Source: a phage
Length of the DNA: 64,000 bases
Sequence record: OZ346222.1
Strand: one strand, 5' to 3'
Shown: positions 1,928 through 47,249 of the stretch, in pieces
Position numbering within the stretch: position 1 is the stretch's first letter
Layout: each line of letters begins with the position of its first letter
The notes under the pieces: generated by a model
What the model was told of the DNA's origin: nothing
The model's database searches: none
Seen by the model: only the letters and a program-made list of their open reading frames with translations
Translations under genes and position numbers: made by a program

Positions 1928-3995
1928 ATTTATGGCATCTGCATACAACCGTTTCGGTGAGCCAAACCCGAAAGCAACTAAGTATAAAAGTGGGGGAAGT
2001 GTGAAACGAGACTATCGTGATGAAAAAGAGGTTGAAACTGTAGAGACTGTTTTAGAAAATACTAAAATCGTCCCTGTCCCACAACAAAATATCGGTCTGA
2101 TGGCTGCACAATATTTTGGTGTGCGATCAGCATTATCCCAAGAAGATGGTGTGACAGTCACTGCAACATATTTCCCATATTACGACCGCTACGGAAATCT
2201 GTCCGGTTTCAAAAAGCGTGACTGGACGATTCCTAAAGAGCAAAGAGGCCATTTCTCCGTTGTTGGCATAGTAAAGGCTAACTCTCAGATGTTTGGTCAA
2301 AAGCTGTGTGCATCTTCCAACAACCGTAAGCAGATTAACGTTTGTGAGGGAGAAGGTGATGTTATTGCAGCATGGCAGGCTGCATATCAGATACAAGTAA
2401 AAGGGATTCTCACCAACGCTAAAGCCCCGGCAAAGGTGAAACAGTGGGCTAAAGAGGTCCAGGACGGGATCGATGCAGTTATCAACGGTGGCGATCTGGC
2501 AGGAAAACCATGCCTGCCTTTTGTTGGAATTAACTGTGGATGTGCAAACGCAGTAGATACTTTTGCAAACAATGAGAAGTTTATCCGTAGCTATGGAACA
2601 GTTGTGCTGGCAATGGATAACGATGCAGCTAACGAGGTAGAGAAGCAAAAACACGTCATTAAAGGTGTTGAGGCCACGCACAATATCGCAGCATTTTTGA
2701 TGGCTGATAACGTTTACCACGTAGAATACCCTGGTGAAGTAAATGACCCTGACGGGGTAAAAGATATCCGTGACATGCTGAAGGCTAAAAAGCTGGAAGA
2801 TATTGTCAACATGTTCCGGCACCCTGTTAAATATGTGCCTGATGCTGTGTCGGATTTAGAAGACTTCTCTATCGAGTCTTTGCGGAAAAAGACTTCCAAC
2901 GGGGTAGATATCAGCGCAGAGTTCCCAAAACTGCAAAAAATGCTAAAAGGCTTGCACAAAGGGACACTCGTAATGCTTACAGGGCCATCAGGGGGCGGTA
3001 AAACAACTGTAGCTAAAAAACTGGAACATTGTATTGCAAGATACCTAATGGACCCGACATGCCCGAAGGCTGATGACTATGAAGAGGATGATCGTCTATG
3101 TATGATCCATCTTGAGGAGGACCCGGAGGAAGCAATTAACTCCTTGTATGCAAACCAGTTAGGGTTTGATGTTAAAGAGTTTGTTGAAGATCCTAGCCAG
3201 TTTTTAACTGATCAAGAACACGCAGAGATTCACCAATCATGGGCAAAAGCTGGAAAAATCAAAGTGTTCAAACATTTCGGATCTATTCCGGTGGACGAGT
3301 TGATTACCAAGCTTAAGCAAATGGTTTGCCTGTACCATTGCCGTTATATTGTGCTGGATCACCTGTCCATGGTAATTTCAGGGCTTAATGTTAAGGATGA
3401 GCGAAAAGAACTGGACATGGCTATGACTCAGCTGGCTGCGTTTTGTAAGCAGTTTAACGTGTTTATCTTAGTGATCGCTCACCTCAAACGTACAGAGATT
3501 GTGCCTCCTAAGGACAAGGATGGTAACCCGTTACCTTTCTGGTATCCTGTGCGAAAAGAGAATTTGCGAGGATCGGCGGGGCTTGAACAGTTGAGTTGGG
3601 TAGTCATAGGTGTCGAGGCCGAAGAAATGGTGGATCGTTCTCGTGGACGTGTCCGTCTGGTAGGTCTTAAAAACCGTCCAGCAAAAACTTTAGGTATTGC
3701 TGACACTTTGGTTATGGACCCGCACACAGGTAAGTTCCATGATGCCAGTAATTGGTACTGGGACAAAGAAATGCAAATGTTTACAGACGGAGAAGGTGGG
3801 GAGGTTGTTTGGAGACCTCAGGCTATGTTTGAGGATCAGGAGCATGCAGTTGTAGAAACACCTATGGGCAAGGTTGTGGCTGATAAGGTTGTAACTCCTA
3901 CTGTTAAGCCTGTTGACACGCAGGAAGACCTCCAGTACGATGATCCATCCTCTGACCCGGTCCCTGGTTTTGAGGATGATGAAACGCCTTTTTAA
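1917..3995 (+). CDS. DNA primase/helicase (TOPRIM primase + DnaB-like helicase, T7 gp4-like)
   Basis: TOPRIM-like CEGEGD and MDNDAA motifs; Walker A GPSGGGKTT; Walker B IVLDHLS; acidic C-terminus ending DDETPF. Confidence 0.8.
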   Translation: MGSKFMASAYNRFGEPNPKATKYKSGGSVKRDYRDEKEVETVETVLENTKIVPVPQQNIGLMAAQYFGVRSALSQEDGVTVTATYFPYYDRYGNLSGFKKRDWTIPKEQRGHFSVVGIVKANSQMFGQKLCASSNNRKQINVCEGEGDVIAAWQAAYQIQVKGILTNAKAPAKVKQWAKEVQDGIDAVINGGDLAGKPCLPFVGINCGCANAVDTFANNEKFIRSYGTVVLAMDNDAANEVEKQKHVIKGVEATHNIAAFLMADNVYHVEYPGEVNDPDGVKDIRDMLKAKKLEDIVNMFRHPVKYVPDAVSDLEDFSIESLRKKTSNGVDISAEFPKLQKMLKGLHKGTLVMLTGPSGGGKTTVAKKLEHCIARYLMDPTCPKADDYEEDDRLCMIHLEEDPEEAINSLYANQLGFDVKEFVEDPSQFLTDQEHAEIHQSWAKAGKIKVFKHFGSIPVDELITKLKQMVCLYHCRYIVLDHLSMVISGLNVKDERKELDMAMTQLAAFCKQFNVFILVIAHLKRTEIVPPKDKDGNPLPFWYPVRKENLRGSAGLEQLSWVVIGVEAEEMVDRSRGRVRLVGLKNRPAKTLGIADTLVMDPHTGKFHDASNWYWDKEMQMFTDGEGGEVVWRPQAMFEDQEHAVVETPMGKVVADKVVTPTVKPVDTQEDLQYDDPSSDPVPGFEDDETPF

Positions 3996-4053
3996 TGTTT
4001 AACAAAGAGTGGGAGGGGTAGTACAACCGCCTCCCCTTTAAGGAGAACTGTAT

Positions 4054-6447
4054 ATGAGTATGTGGTCTTTCGATTTTGAGTCATCCGGTTTGCTGGAAGA
4101 CCCAGATCTTTATTATCACTGCGGTCTGTTTAAAGAGCTGAATAAGAACCGTTTTATGCTGTTCCTTCCTCTAAATGACCGCACACACTACTCCGAGGAG
4201 GATATAGAAAAGGCTAAGAACTTCATTCTGTCAAAGAAAACTCTTTATAAAGATTTTGAAGTTCGCATAGCAGATTTTTCGGAGTTGGAAGGTTGGCTTA
4301 CAGGCAATTCTGACTGGTCACCAACAGCTTTGAACTGCCATAACTGCTACAGTTATGACTTTATGCTAATGGAAAGATTATCCGGTATTCATTTTGATAT
4401 GTTCCGTGATCCTAAATGCATGGGGACTATCAACGACCACCAGGTTAACCTGTTTGATACGTTGGCTATGAGCCGAATCTTGTGGCCTGATCGCCCTTTA
4501 CCAAAAGGTTGTCCGGACGCTGTATTCAACCCGGTTACTAAGAAAATGCAACCTGTTGGTCCTCACGGCCTTATGGCATGGGGCTACGCCCTTGGTAACC
4601 AGAAAGTTCAAATTGATGACTGGCGCGATCTTCCGTTGTGGAAGTATGTGGATCGTGTATTCGAGGACGTTATCATCCAGGAGCTGCTCTGGAAAGAGCT
4701 GGTAGCGGAATCAAAAGGTGTATTCTACGGCAAATCTGACATGCAGAACTTTATGTACGATCCAGCCAAAGAGAAGCCGAAAGGGTTCAAGAAGATCACC
4801 TGGAAGAACGCATTACGTCGAGGCATGCTGCAGCACTTCCTGATGGAGCTGCAGGCCCGTCAGGGTGTATACTTCGACATAGATGGAGCTATTGCTTTAC
4901 GTGACCGTTGCGATGCGTGGATGAAAGAAATCGCTGATCGTGTTGAACCACAACTACCTTTAAAAGAGCTGTCAATGTCTCAGCGGCCCAAGTTCCCTGA
5001 AAAGCCGTTTAACCAAGACGGGACAATCTCTAATAATGGTTGGAAATGGTTAAAAGATAAGCTTGGCTATCCTGTAGACATGAGTGCTTTAGAGTTCAAA
5101 GCCCCGCCTAAGCGAGCATTTACCTCTACAGGAGATGTCAGCAAGATGGGGATAAAATGGTGTGAAGAGATGGGCTGCAAAGACCCCGATAAGATGGCTG
5201 ATTTCTTGAGAGGCTATATTAAGGGCACCTCCACACCACAACCCTTACCTAAAGAGCTGATGGATCAGGCAATAAGTGATCTGCAGCAGAAGCGAATGCC
5301 TGACTGCAAGATACCTATGAAAATCAGCAATCAGGACGACATCAAGCGATACCTAATCAGTGCTGGTTGGCTCCCAACAATGTGGAGAACTAAAGATGTA
5401 ACTAAAGACAGCAAGAAGAAAGCTTTACCTGATGCAGATGTTGATGCACGAGTATATGCATATATGGACGAGCTTTTGGAGTCAGAGTATTGTGACCTAA
5501 TTATCAACTTCTGGAACAAAACTGATGCTAAGTTCCAGACAACCGTGCACAAGTTCCGAAGCTTTCCTAACTCCGAAAGGATTAAAAAGGAAGTATTCGG
5601 GAAAATACGTAGAAAAGCCAGGGCACTTATTACTTCTCCGCAACTGAAAGATACGTTTGGACACCTATGCCCAAATCTTGAAAAATTGAACGGAGAGATG
5701 GCTAAAGATATCGTCTTGTGGTTATCATTGCGAAACCGCAGATCGGTCCTTGATCCAATCAAGGAGGATAAGGTTGATACTGGTCTTCTTAATCACCCAC
5801 GTTTGAAGATTGACCATAAGCTTCCTGCTAAAAGCTCTGGATTAACAAACACTTCCAGACAGAAACACAGTATTTGTGCAAACATGCCTAAACCATCTCC
5901 TAAAGTGGTTATGGGTAAAGAGATGCGTAGTCTGTGGGGTGTTCCTCCGGGATACTTTGAGATCGGTATTGACGGGTCCAACTTAGAGCAGCTTATCGGG
6001 GCTTGGGGTGCCTTTGAGTTCGACAACGGCCTGTATTATGATGTTGTAAGTAACGGAGACGCACACCAAAACAATGCTGAGGCATATACAAAAGTGGCAG
6101 GCAGAGAGGTGTCCCGTAACGACGGTAAACCTATCACGTATGGGGTTATGTACGGGGCACAAAAAGATAAAGTTGCAGATATGTTGGACATCTCCCCAGA
6201 GTTGGGACAAAGGGTAATCGATGCACTCTGGGATGCCAACCCAGGTCTTAAGGGGCGCAAAGAGGATCTGGAGAAATTCTGGGAAGCAACAGGTAAGAAG
6301 TTTATCTACTCTTTTGATGGTCATGCTATCTGGACCCGATCTAAACACTCTTTACTTAATGCATACCAACAAAATGGCGGTGCATCGTTGTGTGACTTAG
6401 TTGGAATACTCATGCACCACCAGATGGTGAAGCGTGGGTGGTACGAT
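4054..6447 (+). CDS. DNA polymerase, family A (exon 1: 3'-5' exonuclease and polymerase motifs A and B)
   Basis: Exo I FDFESSG; motif A-like IDGSNLEQL; motif B-like KPITYGVMYGA; uninterrupted ORF runs to TAA at 6481-6483 but lacks the conserved C-terminal region; 3' boundary set at proposed 5' splice site. Confidence 0.75.
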
Positions 6448-6753
6448 GAAGGTGTTCGTCGTATTATTTATTACCATAAATAACATTGTGGCTTCATAGA
6501 GTAATCTATGTCGAATAACCTCTTTAACTGCGGGAAGCCTAAACCTTATGGCAAGGTAATCCGCAACGAAGCGCTCAAAAGAGCGAACGCTCAGAGGCCA
6601 TTCCGAAAGGAAGTAGACCAGCAAGTGCGGTCGAAATGGGAGGATTCCTGTGGTTGCTTATCATAGGAATATGAGATGGTCCGATCCTACGTGAAAACGT
6701 ATGGCTATGCACGTAATGGTGCGGGGTAGCTTAACGACCTACCTGAACTATTG
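6448..6753 (+). other. putative group I self-splicing intron (about 306 nt, no ORF) in DNA polymerase gene
   Basis: Four in-frame stops between two same-frame polymerase ORFs; P-like CTGCGGGAAG (6527-6537), Q-like AATCCGCAACG (6558-6568), R-like GTAGACCAGCAAG (6613-6625), S-like ATGAGATGGTCCGA (6671-6684) with R/S covariation; exon UACGAU (6442-6447) can pair with intron GUCGUA (6458-6463) giving U.G at splice site; G at 6753. Confidence 0.5.
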
Positions 6754-7107
6754 GATGAGTACCAACTTCAAGTGCCTGACACACCGAAGTATAAGACTGT
6801 GTACACCTTCGACACAATTGAAGAACTGGAAGCATTTAAGGCAGAGCAGGAAGCCAAACTTCATGTGTTCGACGGTCATAAGTACAAAAAGGCACGCAAG
6901 GATGAGGACGGAAACGAAGTGGTTGACAGAGACGGAAACACGGTGTACGATCCTATCCTGAACGATGACGGAAAGCTTGAACTTATCTGGAGCCCTGTGG
7001 GTGAAATGGTGGTACATTGCTTCTGGCAAGCTTCTAAAATGATGGGAGTCCCGTTCCAGATCACAGGTGAATACTTGTGTGGTCGTAATTGGGGTGATTG
7101 TCACTAA
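6754..7107 (+). CDS. DNA polymerase, family A (exon 2: C-terminal region)
   Basis: Same frame as exon 1; ends NWGDCH, closely resembling the T7 gp5 C-terminus NWAICH; begins DEYQLQV, which after splicing would give WYD-DEYQ (motif C-like). Confidence 0.55.
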   Translation, partial: DEYQLQVPDTPKYKTVYTFDTIEELEAFKAEQEAKLHVFDGHKYKKARKDEDGNEVVDRDGNTVYDPILNDDGKLELIWSPVGEMVVHCFWQASKMMGVPFQITGEYLCGRNWGDCH

Positions 7108-15915: not shown

Positions 15916-16123
15916 TGCCGTCCTTTCGATAGGTATATCGTGCCACCTGGCGGGGCCGCTGTCAACACTTTTCAAAAAATTTTTCTAACCTGATGCGCTA
16001 ACCGCTGCAACCTGGCGGGGTCAGCCTGGCAGGACCTAACTGACCGGGTAGGAGAGAATGAAGGCTTGTAAACCTGGTGGGCCTATGCTACAGGATAGGT
16101 AACAATTGAAGAGGAGGTACAAA

Positions 16124-16297
16124 AATGAAAGGTAATATGATCCCCCTAGAAAATGTAGCTATTAATGACGCTGAGGCTATCGCCCTGGTTGAAAAGGCTA
16201 TGGCGGGAGCGTTGGAACATAAAGAAGAGTACGAAAAATGGTGGTTAACCTGGCGGGGGCGGCAGGTGGATTCTATCATAAAAATAATTTAAAATAG
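16124..16297 (+). CDS. hypothetical small protein (about 57 aa)
   Basis: ATG 5 nt after GAGGAGGT; below ORF-track threshold; hand translated. Confidence 0.35.
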
Positions 16298-27805: not shown

Positions 27806-28357
27806 GTGAAACATGAAATAATAACAGTCGTTATTGTGTCGAAAGTGTATAAGGTGTCAGACAAGTTTTTCTCCTCTTTGTCAAGTGCTGCATGAAAAAT
27901 TTACAAGCTTGTATGGTAGCATTTTTGCGGCCCTGTTTACATTCAGCGATGTATGTATAATCCTTGTTGTGTGGGCGTTTAGACGTCTAGACGGTCAGAA
28001 GTCTGCAGGTTAATACCTAATCTATCGGCTGCTAACTATATCCCACACAAATAGTAAGAAATATAATTGTTATGTGCGTAAACAGTAACTCATGTTATCA
28101 ATCCCTGTATGTATCGCCAGTGGTGCGCATAATGGGTATTATGTTAAATTGCCCGTAATGATAACTATTCTCACAATGATAGGTATTCTCATTCACTCCC
28201 ACAAGATAGGTTGCAAATGTTGTGCCACTGTGTGAACGGCCTAACCTATTAATTTGCCTCACTGCCTCGATATTTGAGAATTGTTATAAGAATGAGAAGT
28301 ATTCCCATTTCGTCCGCCTGGCAGCACTCCAGTCGCTACCGCTCATGACAGGGCAGA

Positions 28358-29610
28358 ACTAGACCCTCTTCAGATATTTCTGGCTGACTCTTCAGGTCTG
28401 TGTGGGAAAAGCCAACCTCTCCGGCGGCGGGGAGGGGGTCAATTAAAAAAAATTACGTGGTGCATGAAGCGCTCTTCAGGTAAGGCATGTGTTATGGGAT
28501 GAAACCCTCTTCAGGCAATGATATTTGTGGGTGTGATATTTGCTGGAAAGCCAGATATGACGGGACTCCTGGCGGGGCAGGGGTAGTACAGACAGGGAAA
28601 ATATGGGGGATGTAGTTGGGGAAATTGATCAGACAGGTAGAGTATGGAATATGTTACAAGTATGTTAAATAGGGAGGATGAATATCTGCAGGATTTGTGT
28701 GTAAAATCAAAGACTTAAGTGGTGTTGTGGTATTTTCTATAAATAATTCAAGTTTAATAGGTAATATTTGTCTCTATCCACTTTGTGTGGTAAACAGATT
28801 CAGATGAAATTGGTTTACAAGTGTATACATAATATACAAATTAAAGATACAAGAAACCCCCCTCCCCCTTCGGCTACCATTCACCTTTTCCTCTGACTGG
28901 TACTTAAACACTTATTCAGACTCTTCAGGTTATCACCCATATATCATATGGCAGTGACTGGTGTCCTCCGGCCCCTCTTTCGTCACCCGTCCGCTTCGCC
29001 ATGCTAATGCCATAGCCAATGGTTCGGTTGTTCACTCTGTTCACTCAGGTGTATCTCCATACCCCTTCAAACCGAAGAGAACAGAAAACCCGAATTACTC
29101 GGTAAAAGAAAAGAGAAGAACTTAATTTTATCAGGATAGGCAAGAATGTCAAGGCATGACTGCTCACTAAACAAGCAAACAGTCATGTGTGGAAGGTAAG
29201 TGATTGTGGTGGTGGGAAATTTAGTTGAAAGATGTGTTATAGGTGCGCTTCCAGCACTTTGGCCGGGCAGCTAATTGTGTGTCAGTCCAGCGGTTCATCC
29301 TCTACTTCACTGAAATCAATGTTCATGGTCTCCTCCCAACCATCGATCTCAGCACAAGAGTGGAGTTCTTTAGGGTTTACTCCCAAAGCCTCAGCAACAG
29401 AGTCTATATTTAACACCTCTGGCAGGTATGATTCATCGAATTCAAGGTAAATCAGGCCACGAGTGTTGTCAGCTCCACCAAATATCTCTATCTTCATGAA
29501 ATCTCCTCTGGAAATGAGAGTGTGAACAGGGTTTTATACGTTCTAATGCACAGGAATTATACACGTTTGCCTCTTCAGGCCATGCTTTAGCATGAGGAAC
29601 CTGTGTGGGC
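28358..29610. repeat. dispersed CTCTTCAG(G) motifs, often followed by TGTGTGGG
   Basis: Six copies on the same strand (about 28358, 28388, 28465, 28505, 28918, 29567) within a G/T-rich non-coding stretch. Confidence 0.6.
29282..29497 (-). CDS. hypothetical acidic protein (71 aa)
   Basis: Last gene of leftward block; begins MKIEI like several paralogs. Confidence 0.45.
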   Translation of the reverse strand: MKIEIFGGADNTRGLIYLEFDESYLPEVLNIDSVAEALGVNPKELHSCAEIDGWEETMNIDFSEVEDEPLD

Positions 29611-29618
29611 TCGGTGCT

Positions 29619-29831
29619 TCATAGTCTACCACCTCTGAACTCTTCGTGCTCAGGCATAATAGAGAACCAGATATCTACGATGTCCTCCCACGTCAGGTCA
29701 TCAGCCTCAGGATCTGTCTGGGACGAAGATGAAGAGTCCTCAGAATCTAAGTTTTCCTCTTTAACTGGCTCATCCAAGGGACATATGGTCACTCCTTCGG
29801 ATGTCTCTTCAGATGCATGTGTGTTGATCAT
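29619..29831 (-). CDS. hypothetical highly acidic protein (70 aa)
   Basis: Asp/Glu/Ser-rich. Confidence 0.4.
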   Translation of the reverse strand: MINTHASEETSEGVTICPLDEPVKEENLDSEDSSSSSQTDPEADDLTWEDIVDIWFSIMPEHEEFRGGRL

Positions 29832-30191
29832 GTTCCCCCCGTGAGTATTCCGGCAACAGCCGCTATGGAAGTAATGATCATCAGGATCACCACTAAAACT
29901 TCAGACAATGTTCTCATTGTGTATTCCATATTCTCCAAACTGTGTGTGGATACTATCACGGGAGCGGTAATGTGTCAACAGCAACGCCGCGAGGGTTTGG
30001 TTAAAATCCGAGCGTATGGTGATTTGGGTCAAAACGGACGTGCGTTCTCGCTACGCTCGAAAGAGAGACTTGTTTGTAGAAAGCTCTTAAACGCTCTGTA
30101 ACGAGATTATCTGTCCAAGGTATGCAATCGTGCACCAGATAAAGAAAAGGACGCCACAGAGCGTCCTAGGTGTCTTAAATTTGATATTTTG

Positions 30192-30491
30192 CTATACCCA
30201 TGAGGGCTTATCAAGGTTGGAGTAGCTGAAAGGTGTCAAAAGGTGACTGTCAAAATCCCTCAAACTATCCAAATCTTTTTCCTCGTCCTGACACCATCTG
30301 TGCCTACATTTATTGTTGTAGTGCATAGAATGCATAGCGTTCTGCAACTTAACAGGTACAAGTGATTCAGGAGTAGATAGTATTGTTGGGTATGCCAGAA
30401 TCACCTCAAACAGTGGAAACACATCGAAACTAAAGTCTATCTCTGCAGAGGTTGATGGCATATAGGAGTATTTAGCCGCCTTTGTAGACAT
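30192..30491 (-). CDS. hypothetical protein (99 aa)
   Basis: ATG after GAGGTGG; upstream stop overlaps RBS. Confidence 0.45.
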   Translation of the reverse strand: MSTKAAKYSYMPSTSAEIDFSFDVFPLFEVILAYPTILSTPESLVPVKLQNAMHSMHYNNKCRHRWCQDEEKDLDSLRDFDSHLLTPFSYSNLDKPSWV

Positions 30492-30499
30492 AATCCACC

Positions 30500-30673
30500 T
30501 CACACAGGTTTGATAATACCTTTACCGAATAATTCTTCGTATCTAATCTTATCCGGATCCCACTCTTGGATAATTTCGAAGACAATATCCAACCCAGGGA
30601 TAATCACTTCTCCAGTGTCAAGTTTGGCAAGAACAAAACCAGAAGGCTGAATGGTTTCCCAGTTGTGCTTCAT
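30500..30673 (-). CDS. hypothetical protein (57 aa), or 3' part of a frameshifted gene
   Basis: Open frame overlapping 30618..30827 by 56 nt in another frame. Confidence 0.3.
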   Translation of the reverse strand: MKHNWETIQPSGFVLAKLDTGEVIIPGLDIVFEIIQEWDPDKIRYEELFGKGIIKPV

Positions 30674-30827
30674 TGGAATAGAAGACCTCGAAAATATCGC
30701 CGACCTTTATCTGTTGATCAAGATGTTCAAGATTCTCTTTCATATAGACGCAGCGGATTTTTCGTGCAGGCCAGAGACCACCTGCATCACGTTCATTTAG
30801 CTCTTTTACAGTAATCGGTATACCCAT
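30618..30827 (-). CDS. hypothetical protein (69 aa), or 5' part of a frameshifted gene
   Basis: ATG after terminator/promoter region. Confidence 0.4.
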   Translation of the reverse strand: MGIPITVKELNERDAGGLWPARKIRCVYMKENLEHLDQQIKVGDIFEVFYSNEAQLGNHSAFWFCSCQT

Positions 30828-30848
30828 CTCAAATCTCCTTCATAGATA

Positions 30849-30880
30849 GTAAAAAGAGGGGCCCAAGCCCCCCTCTTTGT
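30849..30880 (-). terminator. rho-independent terminator (leftward)
   Basis: GC-rich hairpin (AAAGAGGGG ... CCCCTCTTT) followed by T-run on minus strand. Confidence 0.5.
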
Positions 30881-30882
30881 CA

Positions 30883-31188
30883 TTATTCTACAGAGCGTTT
30901 GAACAGAATGTCTGCCTCAGACATGTGCTCAACCTCTTCTTCGATTTTAGCGCGACGTTTTTCAGCCTCATAGCGAATATCGAACTCGGTAGCCACCAGA
31001 GATTTGATGAATTTAGGAGAATACAGGTGATCCTGCTTCTCAACGAGAATGATATCCTTAATGGCATCTTTCAGATCTTTAATCTGAAGTTGGAGTTCTA
31101 CCAGTTCTTCGATTGTTTTGCGAAGGCGATCACGCTCTGCAGTGTCAGAAGGAAGAGAGGTGAACAGTTCAACTTTAGATTTAGCCAT
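30883..31188 (-). CDS. hypothetical coiled-coil protein (101 aa)
   Basis: Heptad-like charged sequence. Confidence 0.45.
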   Translation of the reverse strand: MAKSKVELFTSLPSDTAERDRLRKTIEELVELQLQIKDLKDAIKDIILVEKQDHLYSPKFIKSLVATEFDIRYEAEKRRAKIEEEVEHMSEADILFKRSVE

Positions 31189-31216
31189 AGTAAGAGTCTC
31201 CTTATGTTGTTTTAAA

Positions 31217-31468
31217 TTAACGTTCTACAAAAATACCGTTCAGTTCAATAACCAGGAATTTCTGGTCTTCACTATCGTCTCGTGCCAGCACCTCACAGAC
31301 GTATCGGTCATCCCCATCATCATCGCAGTCAAATACAAGACTGAGGACTTTATCATGGTAAACCTTCGCCACTACCGCCTCGTAAGTATTGCCGATTGTG
31401 AATCCAAGATAATCTCCGATGCATTTGACAACAACATGGTCTCCAGCATTTAAGTCAATCTTCGTCAT
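31217..31468 (-). CDS. hypothetical protein (83 aa)
   Basis: ATG after AAGGAGCG; ORF-track start likely too far upstream. Confidence 0.45.
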   Translation of the reverse strand: MTKIDLNAGDHVVVKCIGDYLGFTIGNTYEAVVAKVYHDKVLSLVFDCDDDGDDRYVCEVLARDDSEDQKFLVIELNGIFVER

Positions 31469-31623
31469 TACTGCGCTCCTTGGGTAATAATACTGTATGT
31501 AAAACTTTAACCAGAGATGTGAATAACGCCCCAAAACACACCGATAGCGCTAAAACAGACAAGGCCATCATTAAAGCTTCAGTAAAATCAGTCATTCCTC
31601 ACCTCTTGTTAGTCACTGTACTA

Positions 31624-31887
31624 TCATTTATCCTTGTCGTCAAGAACTTTTTTAAATCTTTCAGGGATATCTCCCGTTCTTAGATAGTTCATGACCTCGC
31701 AAGGTTCCCACTTGAATTTCTTACAGAGCAGGGCGGCTGAGATTGTTTCATTGCGAAAAGAAAGGATATTAATATCCCACTCTGAGAACCCCAACTTCCG
31801 AAGGGTAGCTACAGAAATCCTCACCGCAACCCAGCAGCAAAAACATGCAACAAACGCCACTGCTACAACCCACATCAGGATGTTCAT
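31624..31887 (-). CDS. membrane-anchored protein (87 aa)
   Basis: N-terminal TM helix. Confidence 0.45.
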   Translation of the reverse strand: MNILMWVVAVAFVACFCCWVAVRISVATLRKLGFSEWDINILSFRNETISAALLCKKFKWEPCEVMNYLRTGDIPERFKKVLDDKDK

Positions 31888-31976
31888 ATAAGCACCTTAC
31901 TGAAATACAAGACACAGTGTTAAGGTTACTGACCAGCAAATAATTAACAGTGCCGTTGCAACCTTTGCAAGATTTA

Positions 31977-32264
31977 TCATAGTGCCTCTAAGATTTCATA
32001 TCCTTCGGGTCGGAATACAAGCCACTCCGTGGCTCCGTTTGGTCGATACGCTTTATACAGAACAACCTGGTCTCGGCACATGCACATGGCTACATAGTTT
32101 TCATCCACACCTGCAGCCTGCATTGCATCTTCTTCTCCGGCAACTGCTTTGCTTACAACTTCCTTGGTAGGCAGGTGTGCGATCAGCTCGTCACCATCAT
32201 TAATTCCAAAATGGCTGAGTTCGCCGTTGGTATCTTTAATCTTAATCTTAACCAGATCTTTCAT
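31977..32264 (-). CDS. hypothetical protein (95 aa)
   Basis: Stop/start overlap with neighbours. Confidence 0.45.
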   Translation of the reverse strand: MKDLVKIKIKDTNGELSHFGINDGDELIAHLPTKEVVSKAVAGEEDAMQAAGVDENYVAMCMCRDQVVLYKAYRPNGATEWLVFRPEGYEILEAL

Positions 32265-38124: not shown

Positions 38125-38283
38125 CTACTTAAATAGTAGTTCAAAATAGTGCAAAATTAACAGAAGTTGAACTACACCTAGTGCAACGGCGAGTATGTTA
38201 ATCTTAGAATCGAAAAACTTCTTAACTTTTACTCTAAAAGGTTCCTTAATGTCCTTTACGATCCTATCTATAGATGACCTCAT
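38125..38283 (-). CDS. small C-terminally anchored membrane protein (about 52 aa)
   Basis: Internal ATG chosen to limit overlap with upstream gene; uncertain. Confidence 0.3.
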   Translation of the reverse strand: MRSSIDRIVKDIKEPFRVKVKKFFDSKINILAVALGVVQLLLILHYFELLFK

Positions 38284-38596
38284 ATCTCTGATTACCATCC
38301 TGAACATTAAAGACGGATGCTCCCCCCATCTCTGTAACGGAATCAAAAACATACTCTCTTCGGTCATAAGGGCCGCCAGCTCTGCGTATTAACCTCTCCA
38401 CAGAGACTTCGAACGTCACACCTGTAACGTAATCATCTATAACAAGTCGTGACGGGTCTTTACCTTTACTATCAAGAGGTATCAAAGTTATCTTTCCAGA
38501 TTTTGTTAAAATTTCCCCTTTTTCAAGCAAGGTGTACCAATGCTCTCTGCCAAGACTGTTGAGGCACGTTTTTACATATTTAACAAACATCGTCAC
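38264..38596 (-). CDS. hypothetical protein (110 aa)
   Basis: In gene array. Confidence 0.45.
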   Translation of the reverse strand: MTMFVKYVKTCLNSLGREHWYTLLEKGEILTKSGKITLIPLDSKGKDPSRLVIDDYVTGVTFEVSVERLIRRAGGPYDRREYVFDSVTEMGGASVFNVQDGNQRYEVIYR

Positions 38597-41602: not shown

Positions 41603-42652
41603 TTAAGCTTCTTCGACAATTCCTGCACCCAGGATTTTTTCATTGAGCTCTTTTGCTGTTTTAATAATATTGTCCACCAGACGCTTGCGAGTCTTATCTT
41701 TCACCTTAACCTCTTCACCGCCGTTCAGAGTAGTCTTCAATTGAGACAGAATATCCTGAAGTTCAACGACAGAGAATCTCTGCAGATCTTCTGAAGTAAT
41801 CTCACTCAGGGCAATTCTGACGGTCTCGCCACTTTCCATCTGCAGATTCAGGAACACAGTGTGAACATCACCTTTCGAACCACCCGCTTTTGCAGATTCA
41901 ACAGCATGAACTAACTCATCTAAAGATGTGCACTGGTGAATCTCCGGAAGACCTGCTTCACCTAACACGCCTTCTTCATCACCTTTTGCCAGAAGCTTTT
42001 TCGGTTTTTGTCCGTTCTGGATGCGTTGTATGTTGCCTTCATCCAGAATAATAGCTCCAGTGCGTGCTGCCAGCTCTTCTCCGTCCAACCACACTTCGCC
42101 ACCAGCTGTGATGGATGCGATCTCATCTTCTGTCAGCACCCCACCGTAGTATTTTTCGATCAGGCGTTCAAAACGTTTTTTCCAGTAGCTGACCTGAGTA
42201 TTCATGTTCACACCGTTACCATAAGTGCCACCTTGATAGTAGTGGAACATAAACTCTGTGTCCGGAGCCACAGTACGTTCTTTACAACCAAGCCATAAGA
42301 TTGTTCCAGCAGAGCAGCACATCCCTTCAGCATGTGCAACAACGCTTGCCTGAGACTCTCGGAATGCCTGCAGATAAGCCATTGCAATGTGCACGCAACC
42401 CCCAGGGCTATTGATGATCACCCGAATGCTTTCTTCCGGCTGAGCCATACGGATCGTCTGCAGACGAGACATATGATCTTGTAAGTCTTCCAAATCGTCG
42501 ATATAAAGAACGTGGTCAACAACAGGTGTTGGGTAGCTGTATGTTTCCATGATACCGCCCGGCATACCAAACATTTTATTACTCATAGGTTCGAAACCGT
42601 TCTGTTTTTCTTTCATGCCGTGCACCATGGTTCTGCGAGGTGTTAAATTCAT
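41603..42652 (-). CDS. ClpP/S14-family serine protease-like protein with C-terminal extension
   Basis: INSPGGCVHIAMA (ClpP INSPGG-like), GMCCSAG (catalytic Ser context), FMFHYYQ (His motif); about 150-aa C-terminal domain. Confidence 0.6.
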   Translation of the reverse strand: MNLTPRRTMVHGMKEKQNGFEPMSNKMFGMPGGIMETYSYPTPVVDHVLYIDDLEDLQDHMSRLQTIRMAQPEESIRVIINSPGGCVHIAMAYLQAFRESQASVVAHAEGMCCSAGTILWLGCKERTVAPDTEFMFHYYQGGTYGNGVNMNTQVSYWKKRFERLIEKYYGGVLTEDEIASITAGGEVWLDGEELAARTGAIILDEGNIQRIQNGQKPKKLLAKGDEEGVLGEAGLPEIHQCTSLDELVHAVESAKAGGSKGDVHTVFLNLQMESGETVRIALSEITSEDLQRFSVVELQDILSQLKTTLNGGEEVKVKDKTRKRLVDNIIKTAKELNEKILGAGIVEEA

Positions 42653-42712
42653 GAGAAATCCTTAATATTGGAAGTTGAAAGCTATTTATTTAAACCTGAT
42701 TCACATTTACCT

Positions 42713-43024
42713 TTATTTAGCAATCACTATGGAATACTTACGATTGTCAGAAGCATCACAACTCAATGATTGCCAGTCTACCACATACCACGTATCATTG
42801 TCAACAATTACTTTATCGCCTGTTCTGTAGCAAGTGCTGCTTTCAATAATTCGAGACTCGATAAAGAATCTGTGTCGGCGCTCACGTAGCAACGCTAAGT
42901 TAATTATATTACCACCGCTGTCCTTGGTCCACACATTCTTGGATCCCTTATTTGCCAAAATTGTCTCGCCGTTATAGACAAACAGGCAGTATATTTTATT
43001 CAGTTTCTCTTGTATTGTAGCCAT
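42713..43024 (-). CDS. hypothetical protein (103 aa)
   Basis: In gene array. Confidence 0.45.
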   Translation of the reverse strand: MATIQEKLNKIYCLFVYNGETILANKGSKNVWTKDSGGNIINLALLRERRHRFFIESRIIESSTCYRTGDKVIVDNDTWYVVDWQSLSCDASDNRKYSIVIAK

Positions 43025-43125
43025 ACTGTCCTTCTCTCTGTTTTGTCCGATAATAATATCTAAAGCTTACCTATTTGTCAACAACTGTTTTAGATATTTA
43101 AGGGTGGAATAACCACCCTTCTGTA

Positions 43126-44413: not shown

Positions 44414-44475
44414 TTGGCACCTCCTCTGCTTTCATTACGGCAATTATAACCAACTCAACAAAGCTTTGTCAACAA

Positions 44476-45125: not shown

Positions 45126-47249
45126 TCAGCAACCACAACTTCCGTAGTGCTTAACTCGCTCGATAACTTCCGCTTGCTTACCTTTATTGTAAGGACGGGA
45201 GTTAGGACTGGAAAGGTATCCAGACACACGTCGAATTACACTGATCGTTCCCTCTTCATGGTTTCCACACTCTGGGCATACAAAGCCTTTAGCTGTTGCA
45301 CTGAACTCACCAGAGAAACCACACTTGAGACATTTATCCACAGGTTGGTTAATACCAAAATACATAATGTGTTTATACCCGAAGTCAACAAGAGCCTCTA
45401 AAGCATCCAGGTTGTTTTTCAGGTTAGGTGTTTCTACGTATCCGATGTTGCCACCAGAGGAGATCATAGCAAAACCTTCCTCATACTCCCACTTATCAAA
45501 AGGAGAGCTATTTATCCATACTGGCTGATGGAAACTGTTGGTGAGATATTCATGCTCGTGCTTCAACACTTCCGGATATTCACGATCCAGACAGGTTGCA
45601 GCTTTATAGCATAGACTCTCAGAAGGAGTGCCGTACAAGCTAAATGCTAGTCTACTTTCCTTCTTGTATCGCTCACAAGCATCTCTCATGTGCTGAAGGA
45701 TTCCAAGAGCTAAAGCCTTGTCACCCTCTCTGCCCAAAATCTGACAGGTTTCATACACACCGATATACCCAATACTGATGGAAGCGTACCCGTCATAGAA
45801 GAGTTTATCAATACTCTCTTCAGGATCCAGGCGAGCAAGAGCGCCTTCACACCACATGATGGGGTTCTGCCCTGCCTTTGTTCCTTTTAGACGATTAACC
45901 CTTACAAGGTGAGCCTCGTATGCAAGATCCAAGTATTCGTCAAGAACTGCAAAGAAATCAACACCTTCCGTCTTAGCTTTTGCCGCAATCATTGGCAGGT
46001 TAAGGCTAACAACGCCTAAGTTAAATCTGCCAAGGTATTTCTCCTCGCCTGTTTCCAAGTCATTGTATTTGCTAAGAAAACTCCTGCAACCCATGCTAGT
46101 TACTTTGCCATCTGTCGAGCCTGTCACTTTTCTATTTAGTGGTACAGATACGAAGTCAGGATAGATACGTTCTGCACAGCATTCCAGAGCTAATCGTTTC
46201 AAATCATAGTTAGGATCCCCAGGGTTCATGTTGACACCCTCTTCCAGGAAGAACAGCACTTTAGGGAACACAGGTGTGATACGTTCTTCACCAAGACCCA
46301 TTTTGTGGACTTTCAGGTAGTTTTTGGTAATCATTCTACCAAAGACCGAGGTATCCAGTCCTAAACTCAATGTGATGAATGGAGTTTGCCCGTTGACAGA
46401 AGTTAACGTGTTGATTTGATAGAGCAAAGTCTGCATGCTGTCAAATACGTCTTTATCTGTCATTTGCATTGCAACAGTTTCAGCATCCGGCAACCAATGT
46501 TCCTGGCAAAATTTAAGGTTCTTCTCATAGGTTGCTTCAGCATACTGTGCCAGATAATGATCAATATGGCTCATAGTCTGACCACCATATTGAGCACTAG
46601 CTACCGCACTAGAGATTTGGCTAAGGATTGTTGTTGCAACCCCTATTGACTTCGGCTTACTGACATGGGCGTTACCAATGTTGAATCCGTTTTCCAACAT
46701 ATCTGGATAATTTACCAAACAACAGTTTGTTAACGGACTGATCAAGTAGTCAAGATCATGCACATGGATGAATCCTTTATTGTGCTCTTCGGAGACACGG
46801 TCTGGCAGGATCTGTGTTGATGCAAGGTGTTTGCTAAGAATACCTGCAAGCAGGTCGCGATGAGTGTGTACATGATTAGTAGGCTTATTTGCGTTTTCTT
46901 TTGTAAATTCATCACAAGTTCGATCCAAGAAGCCACTAATATCTGCAAGCAGTTTTCCACCTGCCTCTCTGTTATTATCTCTTGTCTGTCTATACTGGAT
47001 GTATTCTCTGGCTGCACATTTTAAACCCATATCCATAAGAGCATCTTCAACAAGGATATGGATATTTTTTACAGAGATCGTGCACTGGTCGGTTGGTAGA
47101 TTGTTAGCAACAACTTCATTAACCGCGCAGGCGATCCGGTAAGCTTCTTCTTCAGTATGTCCAGACTCAAGTAAGGCGGACTCTGCCGCCTTGATCACCT
47201 TAATTCCGTTATAGAACTCTTCTCTACCGTCCCGTTTTACAACTTTCAC
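45126..47249 (-). CDS. nrdD: anaerobic ribonucleoside-triphosphate reductase (class III)
   Basis: 707 aa; C-terminal glycyl-radical motif RVSGYL and Cys-rich zinc ribbon. Confidence 0.85.
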   Translation of the reverse strand: MKVVKRDGREEFYNGIKVIKAAESALLESGHTEEEAYRIACAVNEVVANNLPTDQCTISVKNIHILVEDALMDMGLKCAAREYIQYRQTRDNNREAGGKLLADISGFLDRTCDEFTKENANKPTNHVHTHRDLLAGILSKHLASTQILPDRVSEEHNKGFIHVHDLDYLISPLTNCCLVNYPDMLENGFNIGNAHVSKPKSIGVATTILSQISSAVASAQYGGQTMSHIDHYLAQYAEATYEKNLKFCQEHWLPDAETVAMQMTDKDVFDSMQTLLYQINTLTSVNGQTPFITLSLGLDTSVFGRMITKNYLKVHKMGLGEERITPVFPKVLFFLEEGVNMNPGDPNYDLKRLALECCAERIYPDFVSVPLNRKVTGSTDGKVTSMGCRSFLSKYNDLETGEEKYLGRFNLGVVSLNLPMIAAKAKTEGVDFFAVLDEYLDLAYEAHLVRVNRLKGTKAGQNPIMWCEGALARLDPEESIDKLFYDGYASISIGYIGVYETCQILGREGDKALALGILQHMRDACERYKKESRLAFSLYGTPSESLCYKAATCLDREYPEVLKHEHEYLTNSFHQPVWINSSPFDKWEYEEGFAMISSGGNIGYVETPNLKNNLDALEALVDFGYKHIMYFGINQPVDKCLKCGFSGEFSATAKGFVCPECGNHEEGTISVIRRVSGYLSSPNSRPYNKGKQAEVIERVKHYGSCGC

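Follow-up and report, generated by a model that had tools for sequence, protein, structure and literature searches.

The question raised by positions 41,603 to 42,652 of phage sequence record OZ346222.1 is what a ClpP-like serine peptidase does in a phage when its gene stands apart from the genes that build the head. The window, by which we mean the whole stretch of 64,000 nucleotides analyzed, belongs to an rV5-like E. coli phage (Vequintavirus) and is collinear with the region from ~85 to 126 kb of the phage AlexBoehm genome. The initial annotation of this locus recognized ClpP-type motifs and a long C-terminal extension, and offered a misplaced prohead protease as one explanation. Our analysis pointed elsewhere. 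The product is probably, though by no means certainly, a stand-alone, non-structural ClpP-fold serine peptidase that would work independently of Clp ATPases, is co-expressed with nucleotide-metabolism genes, and carries a lineage-specific C-terminal domain.

The ClpP-type fold and motifs in the initial annotation were borne out. Pfam CLP_protease (PF00574) matched amino acids (aa) 59-168 with an expectation value (E) of 2.1e-12 and 47.7 bits, against a cut-off of 20.2. An AlphaFold2 monomer model built on 34 family sequences had four parts: a disordered segment (aa 1-42), a core (aa 45-215) with a predicted local distance difference test score (pLDDT) of ~90, a low-confidence linker, and a separate domain (aa 243-343, pLDDT 73-85). 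In Foldseek searches the core aligned with ClpPs in the PDB over 160-175 columns at ~20% identity (E~5e-10; template modeling (TM) score ~0.7 normalized to the target). All of the top 50 matches were ClpP, with target-normalized TM scores of 0.56-0.73, and the handle helix was included, so that the predicted structure has the ClpP alpha/beta fold together with the handle region.

The catalytic residues were located by an hhalign profile alignment to E. coli ClpP, using a sequence identical to that of PDB 3MT6. Ser114, in the motif CSAGT, fell on E. coli Ser97, and His137, in MFHxYQGG, fell on His122; both are invariant in 34 of 34 family members. The INSPGG loop (aa 80-85) and the residues around the nucleophile are likewise invariant, down to sequences only 40% identical. 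The third position of the triad, Asp171 in E. coli, is occupied by Gln in 30 of the 34 proteins and by Glu in four, among them the protein studied here (Glu186); the canonical Ser-His-Asp triad is thus not present. For the segment ahead of the core, neither the model nor the profile alignment to E. coli ClpP gave anything equivalent to the axial loops or helix A of ClpP, and in the family alignment its first ~30 aa are missing from Seunavirus-type relatives. A shorter start at Met32, as in the Seunavirus-type proteins, was considered and is not favored, given the good ribosome-binding site at the first ATG.

The genomic setting of the peptidase is non-structural. A location away from structural genes had been claimed from the start, and it stood: no homologue of portal, capsid, scaffold or terminase was found within the window, with the caveat that a homologue of rV5 open reading frame (ORF) 133, a small protein detected in rV5 virions by mass spectrometry, is encoded ~3 kb downstream. 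The complete AlexBoehm genome allowed the distance to be measured. There the ClpP-like gene (105,304-106,353) lies ~31 kb from the head module on the circular map, so the adjacency to portal and capsid genes that the initial annotation had envisaged as a way for the gene to be an ordinary prohead protease does not exist. In the head module itself, terminase and portal (2331-3887) are followed by a 'prohead protease' of 139 aa (3955-4374), and this in turn by genes for scaffold, decoration protein and, at 5810-6817, major capsid protein. The 139-aa protein (bas56_0005) scored 65 bits with Pfam Peptidase_S78_2/XkdF, where the cut-off is 24; in the Vequintavirinae phage W70 its orthologue was detected in virions under the name 'capsid maturation protease' (PMC11370258).

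The XkdF/S78 enzyme therefore fills the expected prohead-protease position in rV5-like phages. Like the ClpP-like protein, it is a phage-encoded serine protease, present in AlexBoehm, in the rV5 head module and in the Vibrio phage ICP1 (gp125), but it has an unrelated fold (PF14550, herpesvirus/HK97-type), lies between portal and scaffold, is a late gene in ICP1, and is found in W70 virions. Searches found 118 records with the S78 gene (≥99% identity) and 119 with the ClpP-like gene (≥95%); the near-equal counts imply that rV5-like phages always carry both proteases. As a separate observation, the S78/XkdF prohead protease falls in phrog_1530, which is labeled 'DNA methyltransferase', and several GenBank records accordingly call it a DNA methyltransferase or DNA-binding protein, which is a propagating annotation error.

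Transcription separates the two proteases as well. Kropinski et al. placed rV5 ORF122, the orthologue of the gene studied here, in the transcription unit comprising genes 82-163 (nucleotide metabolism and replication), while late genes 27-66 form a separate group with a T4-late-like promoter motif (PMC3606486). In ICP1, RNA sequencing assigned gp211, the ClpP-like gene, to the 'Middle-late' class together with nrdA, nrdB and PhoH (gp208), and the capsid cluster gp122-126, which includes protease gp125, to the late class (PMC7567579). A misplaced prohead protease is thus unlikely on genomic, transcriptional and proteomic grounds together, and we rejected it as the principal explanation given the phage's own S78 protease next to the portal gene, the ~31 kb distance, the non-head transcription unit and the expression pattern in ICP1.

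A subtler version of the same idea is that the peptidase is an accessory or second head-assembly protease, encoded outside the head module, whose C-terminal domain targets procapsids or acts like a scaffold. The best match among curated families was NF045542, 'ClpP-related head maturation protease', at 60.3 bits, and the PHROG families labeled 'head maturation protease' (phrog_1684, 94, 2976 and 133) matched at 1e-14 to 1e-22. Fusion to scaffold or major capsid protein is frequent among proteins of this type; like the rV5-type protein, they lack the Clp ATPase docking pocket, most of them, including most of the confirmed fusions, show Glu or Gln where E. coli ClpP has Asp171, and they commonly combine a core with a C-terminal extension, so that the rV5-type layout, with a helical region C-terminal to the protease, is reminiscent of a protease-scaffold fusion. 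The virion protein ORF133 moreover belongs to the same transcription unit as the peptidase. On the other side, the NF045542 score is half of its cut-off of 120, the complete head module ~31 kb away has a scaffold as well as its S78 protease, and the gene sits in the nucleotide-metabolism unit, its ICP1 homologue being co-expressed with nrdAB and PhoH. The C-terminal domain is also unlike scaffold or capsid: comparison with the phage head scaffold gave no similarity (hhalign probability 0.2%), and ORF122 was not among the 19 proteins identified by mass spectrometry of rV5 virions. Taken together, these data make a second head protease rather unlikely.

The widespread annotation of these proteins as ATP-dependent implies instead a true Clp proteolytic subunit, whose rings would bind the host ATPases ClpX or ClpA, or form mixed assemblies with host ClpP, and so redirect ATP-dependent proteolysis. 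The ClpP fold extends over nearly the whole of a ClpP subunit, handle helix included, and the Pfam CLP_protease score is above threshold. The surface on which such docking depends, however, is gone. In E. coli ClpP, residues Y60, Y62, F82, I90, M92, F112 and L114 are what we take to be the hydrophobic pocket that docks the IGF/LGF loops of ClpX and ClpA. Aligned to E. coli ClpP, all 34 family members have R in place of Y60, E in place of F82, H in place of I90, E in place of M92 and T in place of F112; the remaining positions are V or I (Y62) and S or A (L114), so that seven of seven are replaced, five of them by invariant polar or charged residues. By sequence, then, the family lacks the pocket expected of a ClpP. 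The sensor pair is lost in parallel, with Arg170 replaced by Gly in 34 of 34 and Asp171 by Gln or Glu.

Family scores agree with this picture. The NCBIfam ClpP models scored far below their cut-offs (TIGR00493, 33.2 against 308.6; NF001368, 38.2 against 249; NF009205, 39.2 against 228), and SppA/S49 and SDH-type Clp-fold families were not matched either (SppA_dom, 14.4 against 155; Clp_like_SDH, 24 against 250; Pfam SDH_protease, 15.7 against 31.3). Judged by profile score, the protein passes neither the ClpP nor the head-maturation-protease curated family threshold. It shares with cellular ClpP (MEROPS S14; E. coli ClpP, PDB 1TYF/3MT6) a fold of ~165 residues, the handle helix, the INSPGG loop and the Ser and His positions, but differs in its ~20% identity, the changes at Asp171 and Arg170, the polar pocket, the disordered N-terminus with no axial loop or helix A homologue, and ~135 additional aa at the C-terminus. 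We consider a true Clp subunit improbable. With neither the surface that docks the ATPase nor the sensor residues retained, the copied name 'ATP-dependent Clp protease proteolytic subunit' probably misleads as to function.

The C-terminal extension, put at 150 aa in the initial annotation, proved real: ~135 aa follow the end of the core at aa 215, and most of them form the separate domain of the model. In its conserved part (aa ~265-345) two long helices follow a beta-hairpin, and F293, E297 and R322 are invariant; in the alignment, the rV5 clade has an additional insert of ~30 aa in this domain. Among 1.84 billion representative proteins, a profile search recovered the domain only within its own family, in five clusters of which two were fragments. 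One 144-aa protein (P0043) was examined as a possible free-standing copy and rejected; it begins inside the last core helix and is hence a fragment. The domain gave no sequence-profile match in the PDB and no match to the ICP1 protein's own C-terminal extension, and Foldseek against viral models returned a single marginal match that is probably a family member. At the level of profile searches the domain is lineage-specific, with no detectable relatives outside the family. A role in partner or substrate recognition or in the control of ring assembly is a reasonable guess as to what it may do.

The gene itself is well represented in databases. At the DNA level it is 99.9% identical to annotated genes of the rV5-like coliphages slur16, rV5_ev147 and AlexBoehm/Bas56, with nimi and others alike, and the ClpP-like gene occurs at ≥80% identity in 119 phage records, where it is labeled 'ClpP-like protease', 'ATP-dependent protease' or 'hypothetical'. 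The rV5 orthologue (ORF122, rv5_gp117; 349 aa, 38,541 Da) was named 'ClpP (ATP-dependent) protease subunit' in 2013. The match to phrog_5410 ('ATP-dependent protease', Vequintavirinae-type) takes in positions 4-322 of the 323-position profile and aa 24-345 of the protein, and is thus full-length (E=2e-155). The gene is an already catalogued, functionally uncharacterized element of more than 100 phage genomes, and with non-structural ClpP-like genes common in large lytic phages, the finding is less unusual than the initial annotation implied. Eighteen records labeled 'Campylobacter phage' (host C. jejuni; GenBank MG065635-MG065684) contain a ClpP-like gene 99-99.9% identical to that of E. coli rV5-like phages; their genome sizes are rV5-like, and they are probably E. 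coli phages that were mislabeled or entered as contaminants.

Full-length relatives (304-355 aa, 40-69% identity) were confined to large Vequintavirinae-type phages and contigs of ~120-150 kb, comprising rV5-like, 4MG/PVP-SE1-like, Klebsiella, Cronobacter and Erwinia phages. Overall, 946 phage records matched, including core-only homologues in ICP1, PaP1/PAK_P1-like phages, T5-like Klebsiella phages and Rheinheimera Barba phages; the core-only homologue contexts that were inspected were non-structural. The nearest relatives outside the family were the stand-alone 'ATP-dependent protease' genes of phrog_1827 (E=2.6e-40), among them ICP1 gp211 (36% identity to the rV5-type protein over the core), PaP1 gp041, and those of the T5-like Klebsiella and Barba phages. 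These are likewise non-structural, uncharacterized and often downstream of PhoH, but they are mostly core-only proteins of 180-240 aa, many have Asp in the triad, and the ICP1 extension is unrelated. Among 65 distinct phage ClpP-fold proteins sampled, the aromatic docking pocket was kept in none, and the Ser and His were universal; the long forms (PHROG-confirmed head-maturation proteases or protease-capsid fusions) mostly had Glu or Gln at the Asp171 position, and most short forms had Asp. On these sequence comparisons the rV5-type protein is part of a phage-specific ClpP-fold radiation that includes true prohead proteases, and is not a recently captured host clpP.

Gene order around the peptidase recurs across this radiation. 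The initial annotation had placed the gene between PhoH and a methyltransferase, followed by small genes; that order was confirmed, but a 103-aa ORF between PhoH and the protease had gone unmentioned. Among 19 fetched Vequintavirinae-type loci, the 103-aa ORF and the methyltransferase were present in all and PhoH lay 0.5-2 kb upstream on the same strand in 18. In ICP1, too, nrdAB and PhoH come first, then two small genes and the ClpP-like gene; in Barba phages (~25% identity) PhoH is directly adjacent to the ClpP-like gene and a methylase follows, and PhoH is also upstream in two metagenomic contigs of 125-178 kb. The recurrent order of PhoH, zero to three small genes and the ClpP-like gene may reflect inherited synteny or a functional link.

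If the link is functional, the peptidase might pair with the upstream PhoH-like ATPase, and perhaps the 103-aa ORF product, as a new ATPase-peptidase system: an unrecognized proteolytic machine in which a pocket-less ring is driven or gated by PhoH, by its own C-terminal domain, or by both. The synteny and the common expression class of PhoH and the ClpP-like gene in ICP1 fit this proposal, as does the former docking surface, where the invariant polar residues R77, E99, H107, E109 and T127 suggest a conserved interaction surface. The synteny may, however, simply be inherited, as rV5 and ICP1 share backbone genes (the S78 protease, for example, at ~40% identity), and no PhoH was found near the ClpP-like gene in PaP1, in the T5-like Klebsiella phages or in ~45 marine loci. 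PhoH is, moreover, not an AAA+ unfoldase, and we know of no PhoH coupled to a protease. We accordingly regard such a machine as a speculative proposal with little chance of being correct. Most improbable of all is that the protein has no catalytic activity and mimics ClpP in order to poison or titrate a host factor: the canonical triad Asp is indeed missing, but invariant Ser114, His137, INSPGG and nucleophile surroundings are the pattern expected of an active enzyme, and a Glu or Gln is still able to position the His.

We therefore return to a stand-alone, Clp-independent peptidase as the reading to be preferred. According to this model, the gene would be expressed alongside genes of nucleotide metabolism and replication rather than head genes, and catalysis would be carried out by Ser114 and His137; the third position is held by Glu186, where most relatives have Gln. 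With the hydrophobic pocket and the Arg/Asp sensor for coupling to ClpX/ClpA lost, the protein would most likely assemble by itself into a peptidase ring and need no Clp unfoldase. The lineage-specific C-terminal domain would supply partner or substrate recognition or assembly control, and host or phage proteins or peptides would be cleaved in mid-infection, in line with the second explanation offered in the initial annotation, a protease acting on host or phage regulatory proteins. The oligomeric state, activity, ATPase independence and substrates in this model are what we infer from the fold, the conserved residues and the genomic context.

Several points weigh against this reading. NF045542, a head-protease family, outscored the cellular ClpP models, and Glu or Gln at the Asp171 position is common to the ClpP-like protein and most long prohead-protease fusions, which would be compatible with an assembly-related role. 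The ICP1 'Middle-late' class is not far from late. Prohead proteases usually exit the capsid, and absence from the virion is for that reason weak evidence. The docking-pocket mapping is based on residues named in the E. coli ClpP literature and on sequence alignment, not on the structure of a complex. Finally, the literature on phage ClpP-like proteins (rV5, Vequintavirus, ICP1 and general) yielded annotation-level mentions and no functional study.

The features of the locus are collected in Table 1.

Table 1. Features of the ClpP-like peptidase gene and its neighborhood in the window
Feature	Position	Strand	Remarks
ClpP-fold serine peptidase gene	41603..42652	-	ATG start, 349 aa; orthologue of rV5 ORF122 / rv5_gp117; phrog_5410
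Shine-Dalgarno sequence AAGGA	42659..42663	-	6 nucleotides before ATG; read from the sequence
N-terminal segment, aa 1-44	42521..42652	-	Predicted disorder, variable; pLDDT <50 for aa 1-42
ClpP-fold catalytic core, aa 45-215	42008..42520	-	Foldseek, hhalign and residue mapping
Catalytic Ser114 codon	42311-42313	-	Residue mapping
Catalytic His137 codon	42242-42244	-	Residue mapping
C-terminal domain, aa 243-343	41624..41926	-	Helix, beta-hairpin, two long helices, as predicted by models
103-aa ORF	42713..43024	-	phrog_5456 (unknown function); directly upstream of ClpP-like gene
Sigma-70-like promoter TTGACA-17-TATTAT	43053..43081	-	11/12 match; upstream of 103-aa ORF and protease gene; corresponds to rV5 P121
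PhoH-like ATPase, 262 aa	43126..43914	-	Pfam PhoH 3.6e-47
Putative DNA methyltransferase, 177 aa	41018..41551	-	phrog_799 8e-67; Pfam matches below threshold; small ORFs downstream

Some further observations concern the surroundings of the gene. A perfect sigma-70 promoter (TTGACA-18-TATAAT, 12/12; 44443-44472, minus strand), corresponding to rV5 P118, precedes the small ORFs located upstream of PhoH. The guanine-cytosine skew changes from positive to negative near 30 kb (~28000-32000), where genes switch from the plus to the minus strand at a convergent transcription boundary. In the window nrdD (45126-47249, minus strand) is a single intact ORF of 707 aa; its AlexBoehm counterpart has ~257 base pairs extra (16005-16261 of the fetched locus) and is annotated as a joined coding sequence, an intron-like insertion that varies between close relatives. 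The unexpectedly abundant rV5 virion protein 'gp133' was considered as a possible identity of the ClpP-like gene and rejected; it is ORF133 (rv5_gp128, 151 aa), encoded 3 kb downstream. In the window the ORF133 homologue is split (38125-38596, minus strand) into overlapping ORFs of 110 and 80 aa by a 4-nucleotide insertion in a G-run (~38325-38328), together with an in-frame 6-nucleotide insertion, relative to rV5 and AlexBoehm. The split may be due to a sequencing error, or it could mark a pseudogene or a frameshift site.

The gene itself will not surprise a specialist, but the class of ~950 genes to which it belongs probably carries a misleading name. What is added here is that the prohead-protease explanation is disfavored, that the designation 'ATP-dependent' is questioned, and that a lineage-restricted C-terminal domain and a recurrent linkage to PhoH are defined. 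Non-structural ClpP-fold peptidases occur in ~950 phage records, including such studied models as ICP1, PaP1-like and T5-like phages, with no assigned role. Should the notion of a PhoH-driven machine be true, phage PhoH, a long-standing marker gene, would gain a concrete role. More generally, the function of one tractable coliphage member, that of Bas56/AlexBoehm, would inform a large unexplained class of phage genes.

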